Of a DNA stretch of 52,367 nucleotides, positions 10,460-31,332 are shown piece by piece. Location of the stretch: positions 1 to 52,367 of the IMG/VR virus record IMGVR_UViG_3300022680_000054, one strand, 5' to 3'. The DNA comes from a virus (lineage: Duplodnaviria; Caudoviricetes). The translations under genes and the position numbers were made by a program. The notes beneath the pieces were generated by a model. It ran no database searches, had not been told where the DNA came from, and was given only the letters and a program-made list of their open reading frames with translations. How positions within the stretch are numbered: the stretch's first letter is position 1; the number at the start of each line of letters is the position of its first letter.

Positions 10460-12438
10460 TAGTACCTTCCCCTGGCCCGTTCGCCAGGCACAGGGTCTAA
10501 CTTACAATCGCAGTTAAACCCGTTACAATCCAACTTGCCGCTGCCCGGATACCAGCCCCGCTTGCGCCAGTCGCGCATCCGGTGAATTTGTCCCGCTAAG
10601 CGCTTACAATCAGGGCAGTGAGTTTCCGTCTGTCCCAGTATCCAAATGTGCGGCACGTTCCATGCCGCCGATGCTTTTCCCAGGAGAAAAGCCCCCCTCA
10701 GCGACTTGTTGGCCCACATTTCCGCGTGTACTCTGACCGCCCGCTCTGACATTTCTCCAGAGTACACGCGGGCCGCGAACTTGCTGATAAAGCCGCTTTG
10801 TTCCACCAGGAACTGGCGCAGGGCCTGCTCGTCCCGGTCATCCATGTCGGCGCGATTGACACCGCCTTCTTCCAGGCCGTCCCCGTAGGCGTCCCGCCCG
10901 TAGGTGCGCAGCATTTCGCGCAGCTGCACTCGGAAAGCGGACGGGTTACCGACGCCATCCTGGGCCACCTGGATCGCGTTCTCCAGCATGATGACAAACT
11001 GCGTGCGGGTGGTTGAGAAATCCTTTTCCACCCGTCCCTTGCTCTGCGTGTCGTCAATGCCCGCGCTGTCCGGGGAAGCCGCTTCCCCACTGGCCTCCGG
11101 TGACGGCTGCGGTGTAAAGGGGGGCAGCAGGTTGTCGGTCGGGTCTTCCTTCGGGTCAACGTCATCGAGCCGCACCACCTGGCCATTGTCGTCGGTGATC
11201 ACGTCCTTGATCGGCTCGATCATGTTTGCCAGCAGCTGCCGCTTTTCGTCGTCACTCATCACGGTTGACGGCAGGGTCTGCGTCATGCCGACCCACACCT
11301 GGGCATTGTCGGCCCGCTCCCGGTCCTGCTGTTCATCCCGGTATTTGAACTGGAATTCATAGGCGTCGGGCAGCGTGTCGTTGATCTCCCGCTCCAGCTG
11401 CTGCAAAACGTACCCGAACGCCTTGCCCTGCCCCTTGGCGTGCAGGATTTCCGACTGCGTGTTGGTGCCCATCTTCTGCCCACTCAGCGGCCAGATGTCC
11501 TGCGGATCGATGCCCAGTGCCAGCGCCATCATGGGCACGTCAATCTCAACTGTGTATACCTTAAAATCGAACTTTTCCGGGGCCTGGGTAAAGGCGATGG
11601 GTTGCAGGTCGATGGGCTGATCGACGGCCAGCCCGGATATAAAGACCGTCTTGCCCCACTCCCCCATGTCGTCCCGGTTGATGGTTTCCCGGTAGCGCAG
11701 TAGGGCCGCGTTCCAGGCCCCCTCCGATATGTTGCGCCCCAGCAGGATGCCGGGCTTGGGCTTGTCATCCAGGAAAGCCTCAACGTACCGGCCCATGAGC
11801 ACTTCGCGCTGGATAAGCGCCGCCAGGCGAGACACCGCGCACAGGCCAATCGGGCCGGGCCGCGTTTCGTCGCTGTCCGGCATGTCCAGAAGGCGGAAAA
11901 CGCGCGTGCGGTGCATGACGTGTTTTTTGCCGTCCTGGGACAGATAAATCACCGGGAAATCCGGGTCACCGGTCGGCGTGCAGCGCATGGCGTCCAGGTA
12001 GGCCATGCCCACCGGAGGCCCCGTCATCGCGTTGGCCGGGTTGCCGGGGCCGATAACTTCCATAAACGCGCCGATGTCCTGCCGGAAAAAATCGCGGATA
12101 AATGGCCCCATGCCCATCGCCCAGCCCATGCCGAACTGCATATCCCGCAGGAATTCCTGCCAGCGCTCCACCCCGCCTGTCGCATCGTTGGGCGGCCCCT
12201 GGATTTCCCAGGGTGTCGCCAGTACCCGCTTGATAAAACCGCCGACGGCCCCCTGAAGCATGGTATTGTAGGGGTGCCGCTCCCAACCGCGCAGCGTCTG
12301 TTCCCGCCGGCGACTGCCCCAGCGTGGCAGCAGTTCGTTGCGGTGCGTGGCGAAATATTGAAGCGATGATTGTTTCTCGGCTTCCGGCAGTTTTTGGACG
12401 GTCTGCTTTTGCGCCTGGTCAATTAAGGCGACCATCAT
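10459..12438 (-). CDS. portal protein with C-terminal MuF-like head morphogenesis domain
   Basis: Follows TerL; portal-like FLDDKPKPGILL and LEREIN..LP...FQF; C-terminal HCPDC..CNGFNCDC. Confidence 0.8.
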   Translation of the reverse strand: MMVALIDQAQKQTVQKLPEAEKQSSLQYFATHRNELLPRWGSRRREQTLRGWERHPYNTMLQGAVGGFIKRVLATPWEIQGPPNDATGGVERWQEFLRDMQFGMGWAMGMGPFIRDFFRQDIGAFMEVIGPGNPANAMTGPPVGMAYLDAMRCTPTGDPDFPVIYLSQDGKKHVMHRTRVFRLLDMPDSDETRPGPIGLCAVSRLAALIQREVLMGRYVEAFLDDKPKPGILLGRNISEGAWNAALLRYRETINRDDMGEWGKTVFISGLAVDQPIDLQPIAFTQAPEKFDFKVYTVEIDVPMMALALGIDPQDIWPLSGQKMGTNTQSEILHAKGQGKAFGYVLQQLEREINDTLPDAYEFQFKYRDEQQDRERADNAQVWVGMTQTLPSTVMSDDEKRQLLANMIEPIKDVITDDNGQVVRLDDVDPKEDPTDNLLPPFTPQPSPEASGEAASPDSAGIDDTQSKGRVEKDFSTTRTQFVIMLENAIQVAQDGVGNPSAFRVQLREMLRTYGRDAYGDGLEEGGVNRADMDDRDEQALRQFLVEQSGFISKFAARVYSGEMSERAVRVHAEMWANKSLRGAFLLGKASAAWNVPHIWILGQTETHCPDCKRLAGQIHRMRDWRKRGWYPGSGKLDCNGFNCDCKLDPVPGERARGRY

Positions 12439-21554: not shown

Positions 21555-23105
21555 TCATCGTGCAACCTCAAGATCAAATAGCGGCAACTGCCCGGCTGCC
21601 TCACGTTCATGACGCGCCTTTTCGTTATCCTCCCATATTTCTGCAAGTTCGCGCGCGGTGTGCCAATCTTCAGGTGCAAACTGCTGCCAGAATTCCAACC
21701 GTTGCCAGGCGATGGCCGCGTAGGGCGTTTCCAGTTCGACGCCCTGCACGTGCTCCCACCCGGCCAACCGCGCGCCTATCATCTCTGATCCGCTGCCCGA
21801 AAAGGGCACGAGTAAGCGGCGGGGCGCGTAGGCGTCGGGGGGTAGTAGTAGGGTGGCGAGCCAGTGGAGAAGTGCGAGCGGTTTCACGGTTGGATGCCCG
21901 TTGCGGCGTGGTGCAGTTTTCTGCCCCAGACTACCATTTGCACGCCCGGCGTAGACGCCGGGCGTTTCGTTTTCGGGTAGGGCTAACCCTGCCTCACGCT
22001 GCCATCGGTCCGCCTTGCCGCAGTAGAAGAACGGCGGCGCGCCTTCCAGGCGTTCTAGCAGGTAGTCGCTGTTGTGAAAAAAGCGGGCGGCGGTGCCTGA
22101 GTCGCCATGATGGAACCAGCCCCGGCTGTCTCCCCCGTTATATGAGCCTCGCCCCCCTATGCTTTGTGTAGTCTCACCAGTGCCGCCAGAGCTAACACTC
22201 TCCCCACTCTGCTCCGCCAACGCCTTAACCGCGCAACCGTCTGCGCAGGCGTCCGGCGTGCAGGTGGGGGTGTGGGAGAGGGCGACGTGAGCGGGCCATC
22301 TTCCGGCGGGGTGTGGCGGCTGTATAATGCCTCCGACAAATGGTACACCCGAAGCTACCCGCTTACTACCTAACCCGGCGCTTTTAGCACTACCATGAGT
22401 GCCACCGCTTTCAATTCTAGAATCGTCAATATTCAAAGCCCCGGCCCCCGTGCCCGTGATGCTGTCAACGGGGCGGGTGTTGTAGGGCACCTGGGCGCAG
22501 ATGATAAACTCGGCGGCGGGTTTGAGCGCTTGCAACCCGTAGCGGTGGCCTGCCCACTGTTGGGCGAGGGGGGTGGCGGGGGCTGTGAGTTGGGGCGATG
22601 GTTGCCAACCATCGCCCATTGCTAGACGTGGGCTGGTACTGCCGGGGTTAGGGTGCAAACCTATGGCTTCCCGCTCCGCCCCGTTATCCCGGTCCACCTG
22701 TGTATCAATGCGGGTCGCTTTCGGAAAGCCCGACCCAAACAGCCACACTAGCGCTGGATGTATCACGAACCCCGCATCCTCGATTGCCACTGCCATCCGG
22801 TGAAACGTGCGGCTACCCCCGAACACGAACATAAACGCGCCGGGGTGTAACACGCGCTTGATGGCCTGCCAGGTATCGACCCGGTAAGCCACGTCACCGC
22901 CGTCCCAGGTTTTACCCATGAAGCCACGACTCGCCCGCTGGAAAGCGCCATCGGTGCCGTGCTGAGCCGGAGCGGAGTCGTCCTTGCCAAAGCGCTCGGT
23001 GATGCTGGTCAGGTGATACGGCGCGTCCATCAGCGCCGCATGGAATAGCGGGCCGGTGTACTGCTGGCAGTATGCGGCGATGTCTCCAACGTGTAAGCAG
23101 TGCAT
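21555..23105 (-). CDS. DNA methyltransferase, N6-adenine/N4-cytosine, beta class
   Basis: Catalytic motif variant DAPY, WLFGSGFPK, HPTVKPLAL, PFSGSGS; start reset to MHCLHVGD. Confidence 0.9.
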   Translation of the reverse strand: MHCLHVGDIAAYCQQYTGPLFHAALMDAPYHLTSITERFGKDDSAPAQHGTDGAFQRASRGFMGKTWDGGDVAYRVDTWQAIKRVLHPGAFMFVFGGSRTFHRMAVAIEDAGFVIHPALVWLFGSGFPKATRIDTQVDRDNGAEREAIGLHPNPGSTSPRLAMGDGWQPSPQLTAPATPLAQQWAGHRYGLQALKPAAEFIICAQVPYNTRPVDSITGTGAGALNIDDSRIESGGTHGSAKSAGLGSKRVASGVPFVGGIIQPPHPAGRWPAHVALSHTPTCTPDACADGCAVKALAEQSGESVSSGGTGETTQSIGGRGSYNGGDSRGWFHHGDSGTAARFFHNSDYLLERLEGAPPFFYCGKADRWQREAGLALPENETPGVYAGRANGSLGQKTAPRRNGHPTVKPLALLHWLATLLLPPDAYAPRRLLVPFSGSGSEMIGARLAGWEHVQGVELETPYAAIAWQRLEFWQQFAPEDWHTARELAEIWEDNEKARHEREAAGQLPLFDLEVAR

Positions 23106-23696
23106 AGGTTTATCCCAAAAAACATAATATCCCACTTGGGTAACCGGGGGGTTAGATTTCGTTGGTCGGGGGGTTCTACCCCCCAACAAACCTTCTGTTA
23201 CAATCCGCCGATTTCGGCTTACAATCGAACACAGCGCGTCAGGTTTTTTAAGTAGGGTAGGGGGGTGCTTTTTGAATATCCCACACAACCCAATTCTAAC
23301 CTTTTGCCCTAGATACCGATGCCCCCAAATCCGGGGGCACTTCGTTTTTAAGGACCGGCCCATGCGCCGCGTTGAGAGGTCGCGGGTCGAGGGGTGTCGC
23401 ACATGGGCCGGGGTCTGGACGGTGGAGCGCAAAGGTCATTACAAGAGACTTGCACGCTCCCCACTTTACGAGCGATAAACTCCACCGCCCAGAGCCATTA
23501 CCGGGCCGGTGTTTGGGGCACACCGGCCAGAAGCCCACTAGAGGAGAAATGCCGCAACCGTCAACCTCGCCGCTGACGGAAGTTGCTAGAGTTGGGGCCG
23601 CTTACGGCGGCCAGTCGCCGGTTTATCGTAACCCTGCTTAAGGTGCGTTGCAGAGCAGCCTATCGGCTTTGCCTACCGGAAACGCAATGGGGCATG

Positions 23697-23773
23697 TGGA
23701 CCTGCCCGGACTCGAACCGGGGTACAGCCTCAGCCCTTGCGGGCTTTAGCGACTGGCGACGCCTGTCAGGCCC
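23697..23773 (-). ncRNA. tmRNA-like tRNA domain without mRNA-like domain (77 nt)
   Basis: Acceptor stem GGGCCTG/CAGGTCC-A with G3:U70, stemless D-loop ACAGGCGTCG, perfect T-arm CCCGG-TTCGAGT-CCGGG, central helix capped AGCCC-GCAA-GGGCT. Confidence 0.7.
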
Positions 23774-24122
23774 AAGTGGGGCAGTCGGTCTACAGTGGCC
23801 TGACGATTAACTACCCCGTGGTGATACACAGCACTGCGCGCCCTCCTTGCGCCTGATCTTGTGGACCAGGTGCCCTACCTGTGCTGTCTGCTGCTGACCT
23901 TCCCCGCTGCGATCTAACCCATACGATAGGGTTGTCCTCGACGGCCTCACCGTTGAGGATGCAGCCGCGCTCCCCCGCTAAGCCTTACGGCATCACGGGG
24001 CAACACAGCGGTAGAAGGTTGGGGGCAGGGCGGCTGCGCTCGGTACTCGCGACCCTTCCGCACACCGGCCTTACGCGCCAGTGCCTTAGACCCCGCGAAC
24101 ATCGTCCGCCCTGCTGACCCAG

Positions 24123-24192
24123 TGCCCTGCGCCGGGAACGATCCGGTCCTTCCTCGCCGTGGCAAGGACGTGCAACCTTACACCACCAGGGC
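24123..24192 (-). tRNA. tRNA-like cloverleaf without a canonical anticodon loop
   Basis: GCCCTG/CAGGGC-A acceptor, D-arm GTGT-AAGGTT-GCAC, T-arm CCGG-ATCGTTC-CCGG, anticodon arm TCCTTGC-CACG-GCGAGGA. Confidence 0.65.
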
Positions 24193-24217: not shown

Positions 24218-24496
24218 CTAACTAGGAGCCGCCATCATTTTTGGGGCTTCACTTACCTTGTCATCATCGTCGGTGATGATTACGAAATCGTCCAGGCTCT
24301 TACCGTAGTACCGAGCCAGTTTATCTACAATGGCCGGATCGGGGTCACCCTGATCTTCTGTCTCGTAACGCTGGATGGTGCGCCAGTTGATGCCGGTAGC
24401 ATCCGACACTTCGCGCATGGATATATTACGCCGTTCAACGATGGATTTTAACTGTCGTATCTTGCGGAATTTGGTCGTAAGCCAGCGGATGGTCAT
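24218..24496 (-). CDS. XRE/Cro-like HTH transcriptional regulator
   Basis: ISMREVSDATGINWRTIQRYE..IVDKLARYYG; AAGGAG RBS before MTIRW. Confidence 0.85.
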   Translation of the reverse strand: MTIRWLTTKFRKIRQLKSIVERRNISMREVSDATGINWRTIQRYETEDQGDPDPAIVDKLARYYGKSLDDFVIITDDDDKVSEAPKMMAAPS

Positions 24497-24523
24497 TTGA
24501 TCTTGCTCCTTGCGTATAGCATA

Positions 24524-24552
24524 ACAATATACTATGTAAGTCATATTGTCAA
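24524..24552 (-). promoter_or_regulatory. leftward early promoter
   Basis: TTGACA-17 nt-TATTGT. Confidence 0.75.
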
Positions 24553-24594
24553 GCAAGACAAAAGTTAGTATTTTGAAACGATTGCCCCCAACGC

Positions 24595-24623
24595 TTGACA
24601 AATGTGCAGTTTAATAGGATAAT
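24595..24623 (+). promoter_or_regulatory. rightward early promoter
   Basis: TTGACA-17 nt-GATAAT; TAGCATA repeats at 24517, 24637 and 24645 may be operators. Confidence 0.8.
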
Positions 24624-25281: not shown

Positions 25282-25874
25282 CACAGTTATTATTGATGGC
25301 CCCCAAACCTGTGCTGCTGTTGCCAGCCCTGACGGCCACCGTTCCCGCCGGGCATCGCATCAGCACCGAAGCCAAGAGGCTGTTAAAAGGCGCGTACGTT
25401 TTCGCCAATGGCAAAGCGGAAGGGGATCGCTATTTCCCGATTCACAGCGCCTATCTGGCCTGGACAACCGAACTCATCCGGGCCGGACTGCTGGAGCCGC
25501 AGGGCGGACGCCGCACCACCTGGCATCGGATCACTGAGCGGGGCCGCACCTACATTGAAACACGCTGGAAAGACCCCCGGACGCCTGGTCAGATACGTCT
25601 GGAGAAGGCCCGTTTTGAGCGCTTCACCACCGTATGCCGGGAACTGGCCGTCGAAGGCTACGCGCCGCTGCCCGAACCAACGCGCGGCTGGCAGATCGGG
25701 CAGGTCGCCTTCTTCCGCGAGGAAGACGGGCGCAAACTGCTGATGACCTGCCGACTGGGGACTGTAGACTGGCGGCATCATATGCGCGGGTACTACTGCC
25801 CGTCGCTGGTATATGAGAAGACCGTGCAAGAACGCGAGTGGTCAGCCTTTGACCAGAAGGCGCTGGCATTTTAA
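25278..25874 (+). CDS. hypothetical protein, possible winged-helix segment
   Basis: Start at MTQLLL (ATGA); ELIRAGLLE..WHRITERGR resembles the wing of a winged HTH. Confidence 0.65.
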   Translation: MTQLLLMAPKPVLLLPALTATVPAGHRISTEAKRLLKGAYVFANGKAEGDRYFPIHSAYLAWTTELIRAGLLEPQGGRRTTWHRITERGRTYIETRWKDPRTPGQIRLEKARFERFTTVCRELAVEGYAPLPEPTRGWQIGQVAFFREEDGRKLLMTCRLGTVDWRHHMRGYYCPSLVYEKTVQEREWSAFDQKALAF

Positions 25875-26791
25875 TGGACATCAATATCATGGCACTACCA
25901 TTAATCGGCACGCTGCGCAAAGGCGCGGCCAAACAGGCCAACCGGCCCGGCAAAGACCTGGATCATTTCCGCTTCGACCCGTCGCCGGGCTACGGTGGAC
26001 TGATGCCCGACTGGGTGGCCCTGTACGGCGATCAGCCGCAGTCCATCCCCGGCGTGCGCTTCCTGGATGACAAGCCGTTCATGTTTGCCTTCGAGAAGTG
26101 GGGCGGTAACAATACGCTGCAAGTCCGGCACGATGGACACGTGTACCTCAAGCGCTGGACCAACAACGGCTATAACTATAATAATGATCCGGTTGAAGAC
26201 CATCACCACGAGGACTGCCAGCCGGTCGGGCGGCTGGCCTTCATGCTGCCTGAGTTTTTTGTCAGGACCGGGGTGGTGGGCACCTTCCGCCTGATCACAA
26301 CCTCCATTGTGGACCGTGACACCATCCAGGCATATCTGCAATTCATGCGCCTGATGGGTGCCCCGCTTCCCAGCCTTGATTTTACACTGTCCCGCGTCCC
26401 GCGAGACTTCACCATAGAGATCAACGGCAAACCATCCAAGACCACAAAATACATGGTGCAGCTGGATGCCGATGCCGCCCAGGTACGGGGCACGCTGCAA
26501 GCGGGGGCCAATGCGCCGCAGCTGGGGGCAGGCCAGGAGCGGTGGGTGCTCAAAGGCGAATGGATCGCAAAGTTCTACGCCCGTGCCCTGGAAATGGGCT
26601 TTGACGAAAGCGAAGCCTTGATTGCTCTGTCGGTGGAAGAAGCCGAGCGCACCGGTCGGGCCATGCTGGAATTGGCCGATTACACCGGAACAGCAGAAGA
26701 TGCCATCCGGGCGCTGGATATGTACCACGCCTCGACAGTAGAGGAAATGGCCGCGCTGCCAGCGGCCACAGCCAGGAACGGGAACCGCTAA
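25874..26791 (+). CDS. phage recombination protein, Gp3/recombination-directionality-factor-like family
   Basis: LPLIGTLRKG..PGKDLDHFRF and C.PVGRL.FML..G.FRLITTS pattern; recognised by eye. Confidence 0.65.
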   Translation: MDINIMALPLIGTLRKGAAKQANRPGKDLDHFRFDPSPGYGGLMPDWVALYGDQPQSIPGVRFLDDKPFMFAFEKWGGNNTLQVRHDGHVYLKRWTNNGYNYNNDPVEDHHHEDCQPVGRLAFMLPEFFVRTGVVGTFRLITTSIVDRDTIQAYLQFMRLMGAPLPSLDFTLSRVPRDFTIEINGKPSKTTKYMVQLDADAAQVRGTLQAGANAPQLGAGQERWVLKGEWIAKFYARALEMGFDESEALIALSVEEAERTGRAMLELADYTGTAEDAIRALDMYHASTVEEMAALPAATARNGNR

Positions 26792-28340: not shown

Positions 28341-28564
28341 CTACCTTCTCAGTAGGCGATAGCGTGCGCATCACGCGCGATATTTACCGACGCCACAACG
28401 TCAGGCGCGGCGAGGTCTGTGTCGCACAGGCTGGCGATGTGGGCGAGGTCGTCGAGACTATCTGCGTCGGGGGCATCGTTGAGGAATATGCCATAATGAT
28501 GACCGGGCGCGTATCCGAGTGGATTGTGTATGCGTGGGCGGATTGGGTTGAAGCGGCAGAATAG
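28337..28564 (+). CDS. small SH3-like hypothetical protein
   Basis: FSVGDSVRI..GDVGEVVE; ATGA overlap. Confidence 0.65.
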   Translation: MTTFSVGDSVRITRDIYRRHNVRRGEVCVAQAGDVGEVVETICVGGIVEEYAIMMTGRVSEWIVYAWADWVEAAE

Positions 28565-30221: not shown

Positions 30222-30260
30222 ATTGCGTAGAATCGTCGGATAACCGCTTTTCTGCGCAGT
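30222..30260. repeat. dif/lox-like quasi-palindrome D
   Basis: ATTGCGTAGAA-17 nt-TTCTGCGCAGT; right arm is a near-direct repeat of site C. Confidence 0.6.
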
Positions 30261-30273
30261 GAAACGAGGAACC

Positions 30274-31332
30274 ATGTATTTTATCCGTCACGCAACGCTA
30301 GACGATATACCAGCCATCAAGCAGATCGCCAATCGCTATAAAAATGAATTGGGGTTTGTTAACCGTGCCGCGCTGTCGGAATCAGTAAACAGGCATGAGC
30401 TATTTGTAGCTGCGTTGCAAGATGGGCAAGTGGTCGGCTTTGTGAATTGGCACCTGCGGCGCGATGAATGGACAACCATTTATGAAATTGCGGTGCGACC
30501 CGATCTAACCGGGCACGGCATTGGACGGGCGCTATTGTATGCTGTACCAACCCCGCACCGCCTGAAATGCACAGTGGATAATCCGGCCAATAGATTCTAT
30601 CAAGGGTCCGGTATGCAATGCGTAGGCGTAGAGGAAGGCCGCAAACGTCCGTTAAACGTGTGGGAGCGGCGTAATTTGTATATCTGGGTGCAAGGCAACA
30701 ACCGCAAGGTGCCCGCCATTGCCCGTTATGCTGGTATGGCCTACGGTACGCGCCACGATGATACCCCGCGGGCGTGGCCGTTCATGGTAGATATAAATTG
30801 GAAGCGATACGACTGGGATGATTACCTACACAAAATACGGCGGTGGCGCCCAGTGATGGCAATGGTGCCCGATTATGAACACGAAGGGCAGCGAATGCAA
30901 CTATACCGCCAGATTGACGACCTACAAGCAGCGGGTGTATTGCGCGTGTTGGTCTGCCCTAAATTTAACGGGGCAGTTAAACATATCCCCTGGCGCTGTG
31001 TGGTGGCGGTGAGCGTGCCCAGTTCTTACGCGGGTTTTGTGCCCGATTATCGTGAATTGGCCGGGCGTCGTGTCCACCTTCTAGGCGGTAGCCCTAACAA
31101 ACAAAAGGAGATGATAACTCAAATGCTGGGTTCGGGTGTCCGGGTATGGTCACTTGATGGAAATTCACACAACGCCGCCAGCGCTAAGGGTACAGTGTGG
31201 GCCGATGACAAATGGCGACGGGCAAAACCACATGAAGCGGTGGAAAAGTATCATACAATGCAAATATCGGCCTATAACATTACCCGAACAATGCAACGGG
31301 CCGGAGCAGTCACACAATTGCCGCTGTTGTAG
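30274..31332 (+). CDS. GNAT acetyltransferase fused to a DUF6610-like (TGT-barrel-like) domain
   Basis: IRHATLDD..IYEIAV..GHGIGRALL..ANRFY (GNAT); FMVDINWK, AMVPDY, VPSSYAG, RVHLLGGSP, SLDGNS in the C-terminal part. Confidence 0.75.
   Translation: MYFIRHATLDDIPAIKQIANRYKNELGFVNRAALSESVNRHELFVAALQDGQVVGFVNWHLRRDEWTTIYEIAVRPDLTGHGIGRALLYAVPTPHRLKCTVDNPANRFYQGSGMQCVGVEEGRKRPLNVWERRNLYIWVQGNNRKVPAIARYAGMAYGTRHDDTPRAWPFMVDINWKRYDWDDYLHKIRRWRPVMAMVPDYEHEGQRMQLYRQIDDLQAAGVLRVLVCPKFNGAVKHIPWRCVVAVSVPSSYAGFVPDYRELAGRRVHLLGGSPNKQKEMITQMLGSGVRVWSLDGNSHNAASAKGTVWADDKWRRAKPHEAVEKYHTMQISAYNITRTMQRAGAVTQLPLL

Follow-up and report, generated by a model that had tools for sequence, protein, structure and literature searches.

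Bacteria rescue stalled ribosomes mainly by trans-translation, on which some phages are known to depend. For phage transfer-messenger RNA (tmRNA) that consists of its tRNA-like domain (TLD) alone, the closest described case is the entry 'Mycobacterium phage DS6A (TLD only)' listed by Hudson, Lau and Williams in 2014 (PMC4131195). A passage of that paper, citing Mao et al. 2009, states that a DS6A-like molecule, chargeable or not, strongly inhibits tmRNA, perhaps via titration of SmpB, and a statement in a 2025 paper has the endogenous E. coli tmRNA inhibited by the DS6A form (PMC11915505). Here we describe a 77-nt RNA gene on the minus strand, 23773 to 23697, of the IMG/VR virus record IMGVR_UViG_3300022680_000054. 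This record, 52,367 bp long and with an estimated completeness of 53%, was analysed as a whole and is called the window below. In our judgement the element is probably a phage mini-tmRNA, that is, a gene for the TLD of tmRNA alone, of the DS6A kind. The kind is already known, with DS6A as the single example in print, and a first-pass annotation made from the letters of the window had overrated its novelty, given the passages on DS6A in PMC4131195 and PMC11915505. What we add is a divergent element from an unrelated phage.

Related molecules are known outside phages. According to PMC11915505, tmRNAs without a coding sequence (CDS) occur in some protist mitochondria and in Mallomonadaceae plastids. 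The TLD that was crystallised with SmpB comes from T. thermophilus and has 25 5' and 34 3' residues joined by UUCG (PDB 2CZJ; PMC3985003). The features by which such a domain can be recognised are set out in PMC3968760: G3:U70 and A73 make an RNA a substrate of alanyl-tRNA synthetase (AlaRS), the D-loop is reduced and stemless with GG and UCGAC-type motifs, and the elbow of D-loop and T-loop is the SmpB site. The place of the anticodon arm is taken by SmpB, and helix 2 points away, like a long variable arm (PMC3968760). Literature searches for a broad family of phage TLD-only RNAs turned up mentions of DS6A only; further phage forms may be listed in the supplementary tables of PMC11915505.

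Anatomy of the element and comparison with described systems

The first-pass annotation placed the element at 23697-23773 with a base-for-base parse that proved correct; the RNA reads on the minus strand. Its parts are as follows, with p1 the first nucleotide of the RNA.

23767-23773, minus strand: 5' strand of the acceptor stem (p1-7), beginning GGG, with G3 the partner in a G:U wobble; GGG is found in 51/51 distinct sequences of the family described below
23756-23766, minus strand: D-loop analogue (p8-18) with GG and UCG motifs, C replacing the usual A of UCGAC; aligns to tmRNA and to the family consensus
23751-23755, minus strand: 5' strand of helix P2a (p19-23), with p45-49 as its partner; from family covariation
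23746-23750, minus strand: 5' side of the internal loop (p24-28), ending in a conserved A-rich stretch before the hairpin; the consensus of the family model R3 has a conserved AA
23732-23745, minus strand: capping hairpin (p29-42) of 5 bp and a GCAA tetraloop; the top three pairs covary in the family
23730-23731, minus strand: 3' side of the internal loop (p43-44); from the alignment to R3
23725-23729, minus strand: 3' strand of helix P2a (p45-49); from family covariation and R3
23722-23724, minus strand: linker UAC (p50-52), which with the preceding G reads GUAC, against GGAC in most members; from family comparison
23705-23721, minus strand: T arm (p53-69) of 5 bp and a 7-nt UUCGAGU loop, abutting the 3' strand of the acceptor stem; read and aligned
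23698-23704, minus strand: 3' strand of the acceptor stem (p70-76), carrying U70; read, and from R3
23697, minus strand: discriminator A (p77); read directly
23696, minus strand: the single encoded C past the discriminator, followed by A and U, so that CCA is not encoded; read, and 46/49 distinct elements have this C

The 7-bp acceptor stem (p1-7 with p70-76) has G3:U70 and is followed by the discriminator A, so the AlaRS identity set is present; this, and the lack of an encoded CCA (the next bases are C-A-U), had been read correctly in the first-pass annotation. The D region is 11 nt long, and its C variant recurs in the family members L095 and L059. In the position of the tRNA anticodon arm there is a 5-bp helix (p19-23 with p45-49), helix 2a, which encloses the 5-bp GCAA hairpin. 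This hairpin occupies the place of helix 2, the pseudoknots and the tag frame of a full tmRNA, and there is no mRNA-like domain: the element has only 21 nt where the tmRNA model has 314 positions. Features of a tRNA are absent as well, since there is a tetraloop instead of a 7-nt anticodon loop, no conserved D stem and no anticodon.

We located the DS6A element at 28478-28557 of the DS6A genome (L023), where it is unannotated and lies between gp33 and the DNA polymerase III gene. It scores 43.2 bits with the Rfam tmRNA family (RF00023), and a model built from the window element as a single sequence ranks it above every other place in that genome, at 28.5 bits. The architecture of the two RNAs is shared, and each helix shows compensating changes between them. 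Each is encoded by a phage and measures some 80 nt; the acceptor stem carries G3:U70 and is followed by A73, the D-loop has GG and UCG and is left unpaired in the family parse, helix 2a has 5 bp, and a short capped hairpin and a T arm complete the fold. Past the discriminator C alone is encoded, and in both phages the element is on the same strand as the adjoining replication genes. They differ in that the phages are unrelated, with no shared proteins seen, and the window element is further from tmRNA (25.0 against 43.2 bits in Rfam). It also has C4:G69, a shorter D-loop, a GCAA loop where DS6A has CACG, and C and U at two conserved non-Watson-Crick positions.

Other described systems are less close. 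The engineered TLD RNAs of PMC3985003 also join the ends of tmRNA by a stable tetraloop in helix 2, and that construct binds SmpB; the window element differs in being natural and in having an extra internal loop and hairpin, and its SmpB binding is a prediction. The CDS-less organellar tmRNAs likewise are tRNA-like domains without a tag frame. As described in PMC11915505, however, these are of vertical bacterial descent, use imported SmpB and are the sole tmRNA, whereas the window element is a phage gene that faces a complete host tmRNA. Full-length phage tmRNAs, such as those of cluster C mycobacteriophages and of Streptomyces phages with annotated tag peptides, are phage-encoded and have the same TLD motifs; the two-piece ssrA of phage Melnitz is a further example (PMC9004378). 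These have pseudoknots and a tag frame and are found by ARAGORN, whereas the window element has neither and is missed. Finally, tRNA-Ala shares G3:U70, A73 and the T arm, but the window element is without a D stem, a 7-nt anticodon loop and an anticodon, and Rfam favours tmRNA over tRNA.

A covarying family of phage RNAs

IMG/VR was scanned with a degenerate pattern of the positions common to the window element and DS6A. This pattern matched at least 119 stretches, and 80 loci were analysed. With a covariance model of the two seeds that includes helix 2a (R2) and a threshold of E<=1e-6, 56 of these loci yielded 57 elements, of which 47 are distinct, with lengths of 76-95 nt (77 nt in the window). 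A further model, R3, was built from those 57 elements only, with the window element and DS6A left out.

R3 scores the window element at 72.6 bits (E 6.9e-16 over 52,367 bp) and the DS6A element at 76.7 bits. The resemblance is far beyond chance, as the 72.6 bits come from an independently built model and the next best place in the window reaches 15.3 bits. Judged on these comparisons, it appears very likely that the element belongs to a phage TLD-only family. The first-pass claim of a tmRNA tRNA-like domain without the mRNA part is supported by this score and by an Rfam search of a 101-nt stretch in which tmRNA is the best family; in addition, the family includes the published DS6A element, and 13 of the 17 members tested pass the Rfam cut-off for tmRNA (47.1-67.1 bits).

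For the specificity of R3 we have several controls. No annotated tRNA in three phage tRNA arrays exceeds 22.1 bits. Four bacterial genomes gave as top matches two tRNA-Ala genes (38.5 and 36.7 bits), a site on L149 at which ARAGORN has no gene (33.2 bits) and, at 31.5 bits, a genuine tmRNA matched at its 3' end; the noise ceiling is thus 38.5 bits, a tRNA-Ala. A search of 151 genomes sampled from the phylum of genome G002 gave nothing at E<=1e-7; 31 candidates per genome were scored, so this empty answer shows nothing. We also note, at L009 25-96 and L014 532-602, two genes resembling tRNA-Ala(UGC) that have G3:U70 and an unusual D arm; they head arrays of 22-26 tRNAs and are not called by ARAGORN.

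These controls bear on the idea that the element is a functionless remnant, either a decayed tRNA-Ala gene or a chance tRNA-like fold. The nearest matches outside the family are indeed tRNA-Ala genes, and ARAGORN is silent at default settings; at the 80% threshold it gives only a poor tRNA-Phe(aaa) call on the element and a permuted tmRNA with the tag VRPL*, both of which we judged not credible. A remnant seems very improbable to us nonetheless. The element scores 72.6 bits against at most 38.5 for tRNA-Ala genes, its helices are all intact, its rare base combination is common to two other members, and the architecture recurs in at least 51 distinct sequences.

The structure is borne out by covariation. 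In the 57-element alignment, 92.4% of the cells that make up the pairs are paired, compared with 67.8% after shuffling (0/500 shuffles reach 92.4%) and at most 55.5% with sliding partners. Double changes occur in 15 of the 22 pairs, across the acceptor stem, helix 2a, the hairpin and the T stem. For helix 2a these are 4 of the 5 pairs, with 98.3% of cells paired; in the T stem 4/5 pairs covary and 100% of cells are paired. The loop of the capping hairpin varies, with CACG, GCAA, GUAA and GAAA types.

ARAGORN makes no tRNA or tmRNA call on the 57 elements, except for a doubtful 644-nt 'tmRNA*' with the putative tag AKQHGSTPA* that starts at the L083 element. That element (11235-11329) and the one at L067 11908-12002 are 95-nt variants with a long inner hairpin. 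One contig, L086, bears two mini-tmRNA copies (5-81 and 1317-1392), the first with a degenerate T-loop, and the L095 contig also carries a diversity-generating retroelement RNA at 1266-1387 (RF03022, 77.1 bits).

An earlier search used a gapped pattern of the D region and T-loop and returned 0 viral, 16 metagenome and 4 genome loci. These were mostly ordinary array tRNAs or chance matches, and none had proteins of the window. They include a 71-nt tRNA-Met(CAU) without a D stem, in a 17-tRNA array (L015 2810-2880, minus strand, and L022 2764-2834, plus strand). The D region of this RNA is identical to that of the window element over 15 nt, and both ARAGORN and Rfam (30.8 bits) call it a tRNA; it is a decoding tRNA with a tmRNA-style D-loop. 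Since it scores as a tRNA, the D region alone does not produce a tmRNA call. For the same reason, and because the D-loops of the family have no mini-hairpin, we dropped a reading of the element as a tRNA with a mini D-arm.

Conserved positions and the alanine identity

G1-G3 are present in all 51 distinct sequences without being forced by the search pattern, therefore a G:U wobble, not an A:U pair, is kept. The first-pass annotation had named homologues lacking G3:U70 as evidence that would speak against its reading. In our search GGG...UCCA occurs in 51/51; G3 is kept throughout, unforced, and U70 and A73 were fixed by the pattern in 47 of the 51. Over the same sequences, the variable position of UCGXC and its linker partner are A:G in 42, A:C in 4, C:U in 3 and U:C in 2. 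The C in the D-loop and U in the linker of the window element recur jointly in L095 and L059 (3/51 distinct sequences), which suggests that the two positions form a constrained non-Watson-Crick contact, either tertiary or with SmpB. In the 3' flank of 49 distinct elements, C follows the discriminator in 46 and the full CCA is encoded in only 2, so the missing CCA is a trait of the family.

Two further features of the members can be noted. Several have an AAGGAG-like ribosome-binding site within 5-10 nt 3' of the element. A conserved (U/G)AAA(G/A)CC run before the capping hairpin resembles UUAAAGAGCCGG, which shortly precedes the tag frame of a full-length bacterial tmRNA, the only one compared (L150 1498-1853, minus strand); the run may be left over from the part that leads up to the resume codon.

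The retained alanine identity raises the question of what the RNA does once made. It could be a tag-less rescue helper that is charged with alanine, enters stalled ribosomes with SmpB bound, takes over the nascent chain and spares phage or host products a degradation tag. Release would be left to other factors, as proposed for the CDS-less mitochondrial and plastid tmRNAs, and these organellar forms are argued in PMC11915505 still to help with incomplete mRNAs. The strong retention of the AlaRS identity (GGG...UCCA in 51/51) and of the C after the discriminator (46/49) indicates selection for charging, which simple titration of SmpB would not need; to the extent that charging matters, this keeps a ribosome-acting, tag-less role alive. 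That said, U70 and A73 are pattern-fixed in 47/51 sequences and, without a resume codon and a stop codon, a peptidyl-RNA beside an empty A site is itself a stalled state. We consider such a helper unlikely, and return below to the inhibition of host trans-translation.

Members in cultured phages and their positions

A blastn search with one member gave near-full-length matches in seven records of six Streptomyces phages. Three of these were scored with R3, at 83.3 (LuckySocke), 76.7 (Shaeky) and 73.2 bits (BRock). Each is unannotated and lies in a gap of a tRNA array:

L144 1501-1578: unannotated mini-tmRNA of Streptomyces phage LuckySocke, in a gap in the tRNA array
L145 1491-1569: unannotated mini-tmRNA of Streptomyces phage Shaeky, in a gap in the tRNA array
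L146 1491-1568: unannotated mini-tmRNA of Streptomyces phage BRock, in a gap in the tRNA array

The family is wider than the search pattern, as two of these three elements do not fit it. Similar matches in GiJojo, pSt2308 and Alone3 were found by blastn alone.

Among the IMG/VR loci, 10 of 56 have an ARAGORN tRNA within about 250 nt of the element. Ten neighbouring open reading frames (ORFs) from nine loci were compared with Pfam, and four of them, co-oriented with the element, encode an HK97-type major capsid protein:

L030 7634-7712; L078 2469-2547; L062 547-625; L084 2297-2374: mini-tmRNA 99-123 nt upstream of an HK97-type major capsid gene

At L084 a prohead protease gene lies upstream of the mini-tmRNA and the capsid gene downstream. 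The capsid-linked members are thus in a late, structural-module position, unlike the early position in the window. An element about 100-120 nt before the major capsid gene, as at these four loci, would be produced alongside the most heavily translated message, and this counts in favour of the tag-less helper.

These positions also bear on the first-pass alternative that the element is mere processing punctuation, i.e. an RNase P or RNase Z site that splits the regulator message from that of the replication genes, the excised RNA being functionless. The element is co-oriented with its flanking genes, and at several loci it stands a few bases before a Shine-Dalgarno-like AAGGAG or between prohead protease and capsid genes, as such a site might. 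However, acceptor and T-arm geometry would suffice for processing, which leaves G3:U70, the GG/UCG D-loop, the covarying non-Watson-Crick positions and helix 2a unexplained; it is the tmRNA model and not the tRNA model that fits in Rfam; and many members lie inside tRNA arrays, where there is no mRNA to cut. We regard a pure processing role as quite improbable.

Gene context in the window

The window is a phage contig. Its genes, from Pfam and PHROG matches, include those for a terminase large subunit, a portal protein, tail-like proteins, RepO-like and DnaB proteins and a Cro/cI-type helix-turn-helix (HTH) regulator. The element sits in a 785-nt gap without a recognisable ORF, between the HTH gene and a methyltransferase gene; none of five small ORFs within or next to it matches a PHROG. 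The features next to it, given for context, are:

24218-24601, minus strand: gene for a Cro/cI-type HTH regulator, upstream of the RNA (Pfam HTH_3, 1.1e-09; PHROG transcriptional regulator or repressor)
21555-23432, minus strand: DNA methyltransferase-like gene, 265 nt 3' of the element (PHROG 67 at 1.1e-20)
24524-24552, minus strand: sigma-70-like promoter match (10/12), which could drive an early minus-strand transcript that includes the element

The RepO-like and DnaB genes (Pfam Phage_rep_O and DnaB_C) come after the methyltransferase gene on the same strand. The promoter match is one of a divergent promoter-like pair at about 24524-24623, and between this pair and the downstream genes we saw no convincing terminator. 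We infer an early operon in the order HTH regulator, element, methyltransferase, RepO and DnaB, which would be co-transcribed. The 80% ARAGORN run also made a weak 71-nt tRNA-like call just 3' of the HTH gene (24122-24192, minus strand), which R3 does not match and which is probably due to chance. Elsewhere in the window, an ORF at 30259-31332 (plus strand) is a GNAT acetyltransferase fused to DUF6610.

Genes for tmRNA are common phage integration sites, and so a piece of host ssrA might serve as, or be left from, a phage attachment site. The contig does carry a gene for a Gp3-like recombination directionality factor at 25874-26791 (plus strand), and prophage ssrA fragments from imprecise excision are noted in a passage of PMC9004378. 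On the other side, such a fragment would hold only the 3' part, while the window element has the two strands of the acceptor stem, with a neat capped hairpin linking them. There is no integrase among the 20 window ORFs scanned with Pfam, although one could lie elsewhere as the record is 53% complete, and other members are found in tRNA arrays and before capsid genes. We think an attachment-site origin very improbable. The data fit this origin, a processing-only role and a dead tRNA-Ala gene alike poorly.

Searches for relatives of this phage gave little. The element region has no blastn match in INPHARED, and a scan of IMG/VR for exact 26-mers gave no matches. A locus search seeded with the methyltransferase protein gave one locus, L002, at 36% identity and without the element, and searches with the HTH and DnaB proteins gave no related loci. 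In tblastn against phages, the terminase and DnaB matches are all at or below 32% identity and are spread over many hosts. No RNA sequencing run is listed as containing the window, and one DNA run contains 6% of its words; its contigs lack 23436-24040, and it is uninformative on expression.

Standard annotation and points that weigh against the assignment

The element is not visible to default annotation, and this is the first of several points that weigh against reading it as a functional mini-tmRNA. Default ARAGORN finds no genes in the whole window, and Rfam at its gathering threshold reports nothing at the element. An Rfam search of a 901-nt stretch at E<=10 has no tRNA or tmRNA row that covers it; the sole row of the tmRNA clan is beta_tmRNA (7.3 bits, E 9), which overlaps the 3' end of the element only. 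A profile search of the window with RF00023 found no match, and the same family matches below its cut-off even in archaeal controls, so sub-threshold tmRNA matches alone mean little. With the 101-nt stretch, for which the filters are laxer, RF00023 is top of 4227 Rfam families (25.0 bits, E 5.4e-9), with an alignment that spans model positions 1-374 with one internal gap and that beats tRNA within clan CL00001. Of the ARAGORN and Rfam check that the first-pass annotation proposed, the part that held is therefore this ranking; default ARAGORN gave nothing, and 25.0 bits is less than the Rfam tmRNA cut-off of 47 bits, which by itself makes the match only a lead.

Other points concern the structure. 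The minimum free energy fold of the single sequence (-38.4 kcal/mol, z -2.39) has the inner helix shifted relative to the parse and a 3-bp mini-hairpin in part of the D region; this mini-hairpin is not kept in the family alignment. The stemless D-loop plus helix of the first-pass annotation hence rests on family covariation, as single-sequence thermodynamics fold differently: helix 2a is upheld by the family, and the D region of the single sequence can form the mini-hairpin. Two changes, A to C in UCGAC and G to U in GGAC, affect two bases that hardly vary in tmRNA, and SmpB might bind less well as a result.

The family, too, has to be read with care. It was found by a pattern and a model that derive from the window element and DS6A, so its members were chosen for likeness to these seeds. 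UCGnC, AC, the T-loop and CnGnUCCA are conserved by construction, because they were fixed in the search pattern, and the alignment behind the pair counts was fitted to the model. There is no SmpB gene in the window. Conservation of the locus cannot be shown, as DNA and three proteins found no relative of this phage in IMG/VR or INPHARED. Lastly, the inhibitory effect of the DS6A RNA is taken here from sentences in two later papers (PMC4131195 and PMC11915505) and not from Mao et al. 2009.

Proposed mechanism and significance

With these points in mind, we propose the following mechanism. The element would be transcribed with the early minus-strand operon, after which RNase P may cut at G1 and the 3' end would be trimmed. 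A CCA-adding enzyme would then complete the 3' end, and would be needed because the gene supplies no more than the first C. Once mature, the RNA, about 80 nt long, would show the AlaRS identity set (G3:U70 and A73), so that it might be charged, and would offer an elbow of D-loop, T-loop and helix 2a to which SmpB is predicted to bind. It would have no resume codon, tag frame or stop codon. It could thus draw SmpB away from host tmRNA and, if it is charged, also compete with it for EF-Tu and stalled ribosomes. SsrA tagging and trans-translation would be damped during infection, presumably to the benefit of the phage.

By analogy with DS6A we lean, with some reserve, towards this inhibition of host trans-translation. 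The decoy idea of the first-pass annotation agrees with what passages in PMC4131195 and PMC11915505 say of DS6A-like molecules, and a role as a decoy for SmpB and trans-translation would follow from that analogy.

A phage RNA limited to the end of tmRNA that SmpB and AlaRS bind would be a natural competitive inhibitor, or a device that rewires trans-translation. The family extends to at least 51 distinct sequences, which come from phages both cultured and uncultured and are left unannotated by standard tools. It gives a covariance model for annotation and natural variation at SmpB-contacting positions, and it includes testable members in Streptomyces phages. In value, the covarying family may outweigh the single locus, although its breadth may already be published in the supplementary tables of PMC11915505. 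More tentatively, mini-tmRNAs could be a widespread, unannotated phage device that acts on host ribosome rescue, or a bait for SmpB-like defence sensors such as CoCoNuTs, with a timing that differs among phages: early here, with the capsid gene in others, or in tRNA arrays. If this were true, the kept alanine identity would mean that these RNAs act on the ribosome and are not a mere sponge for SmpB.

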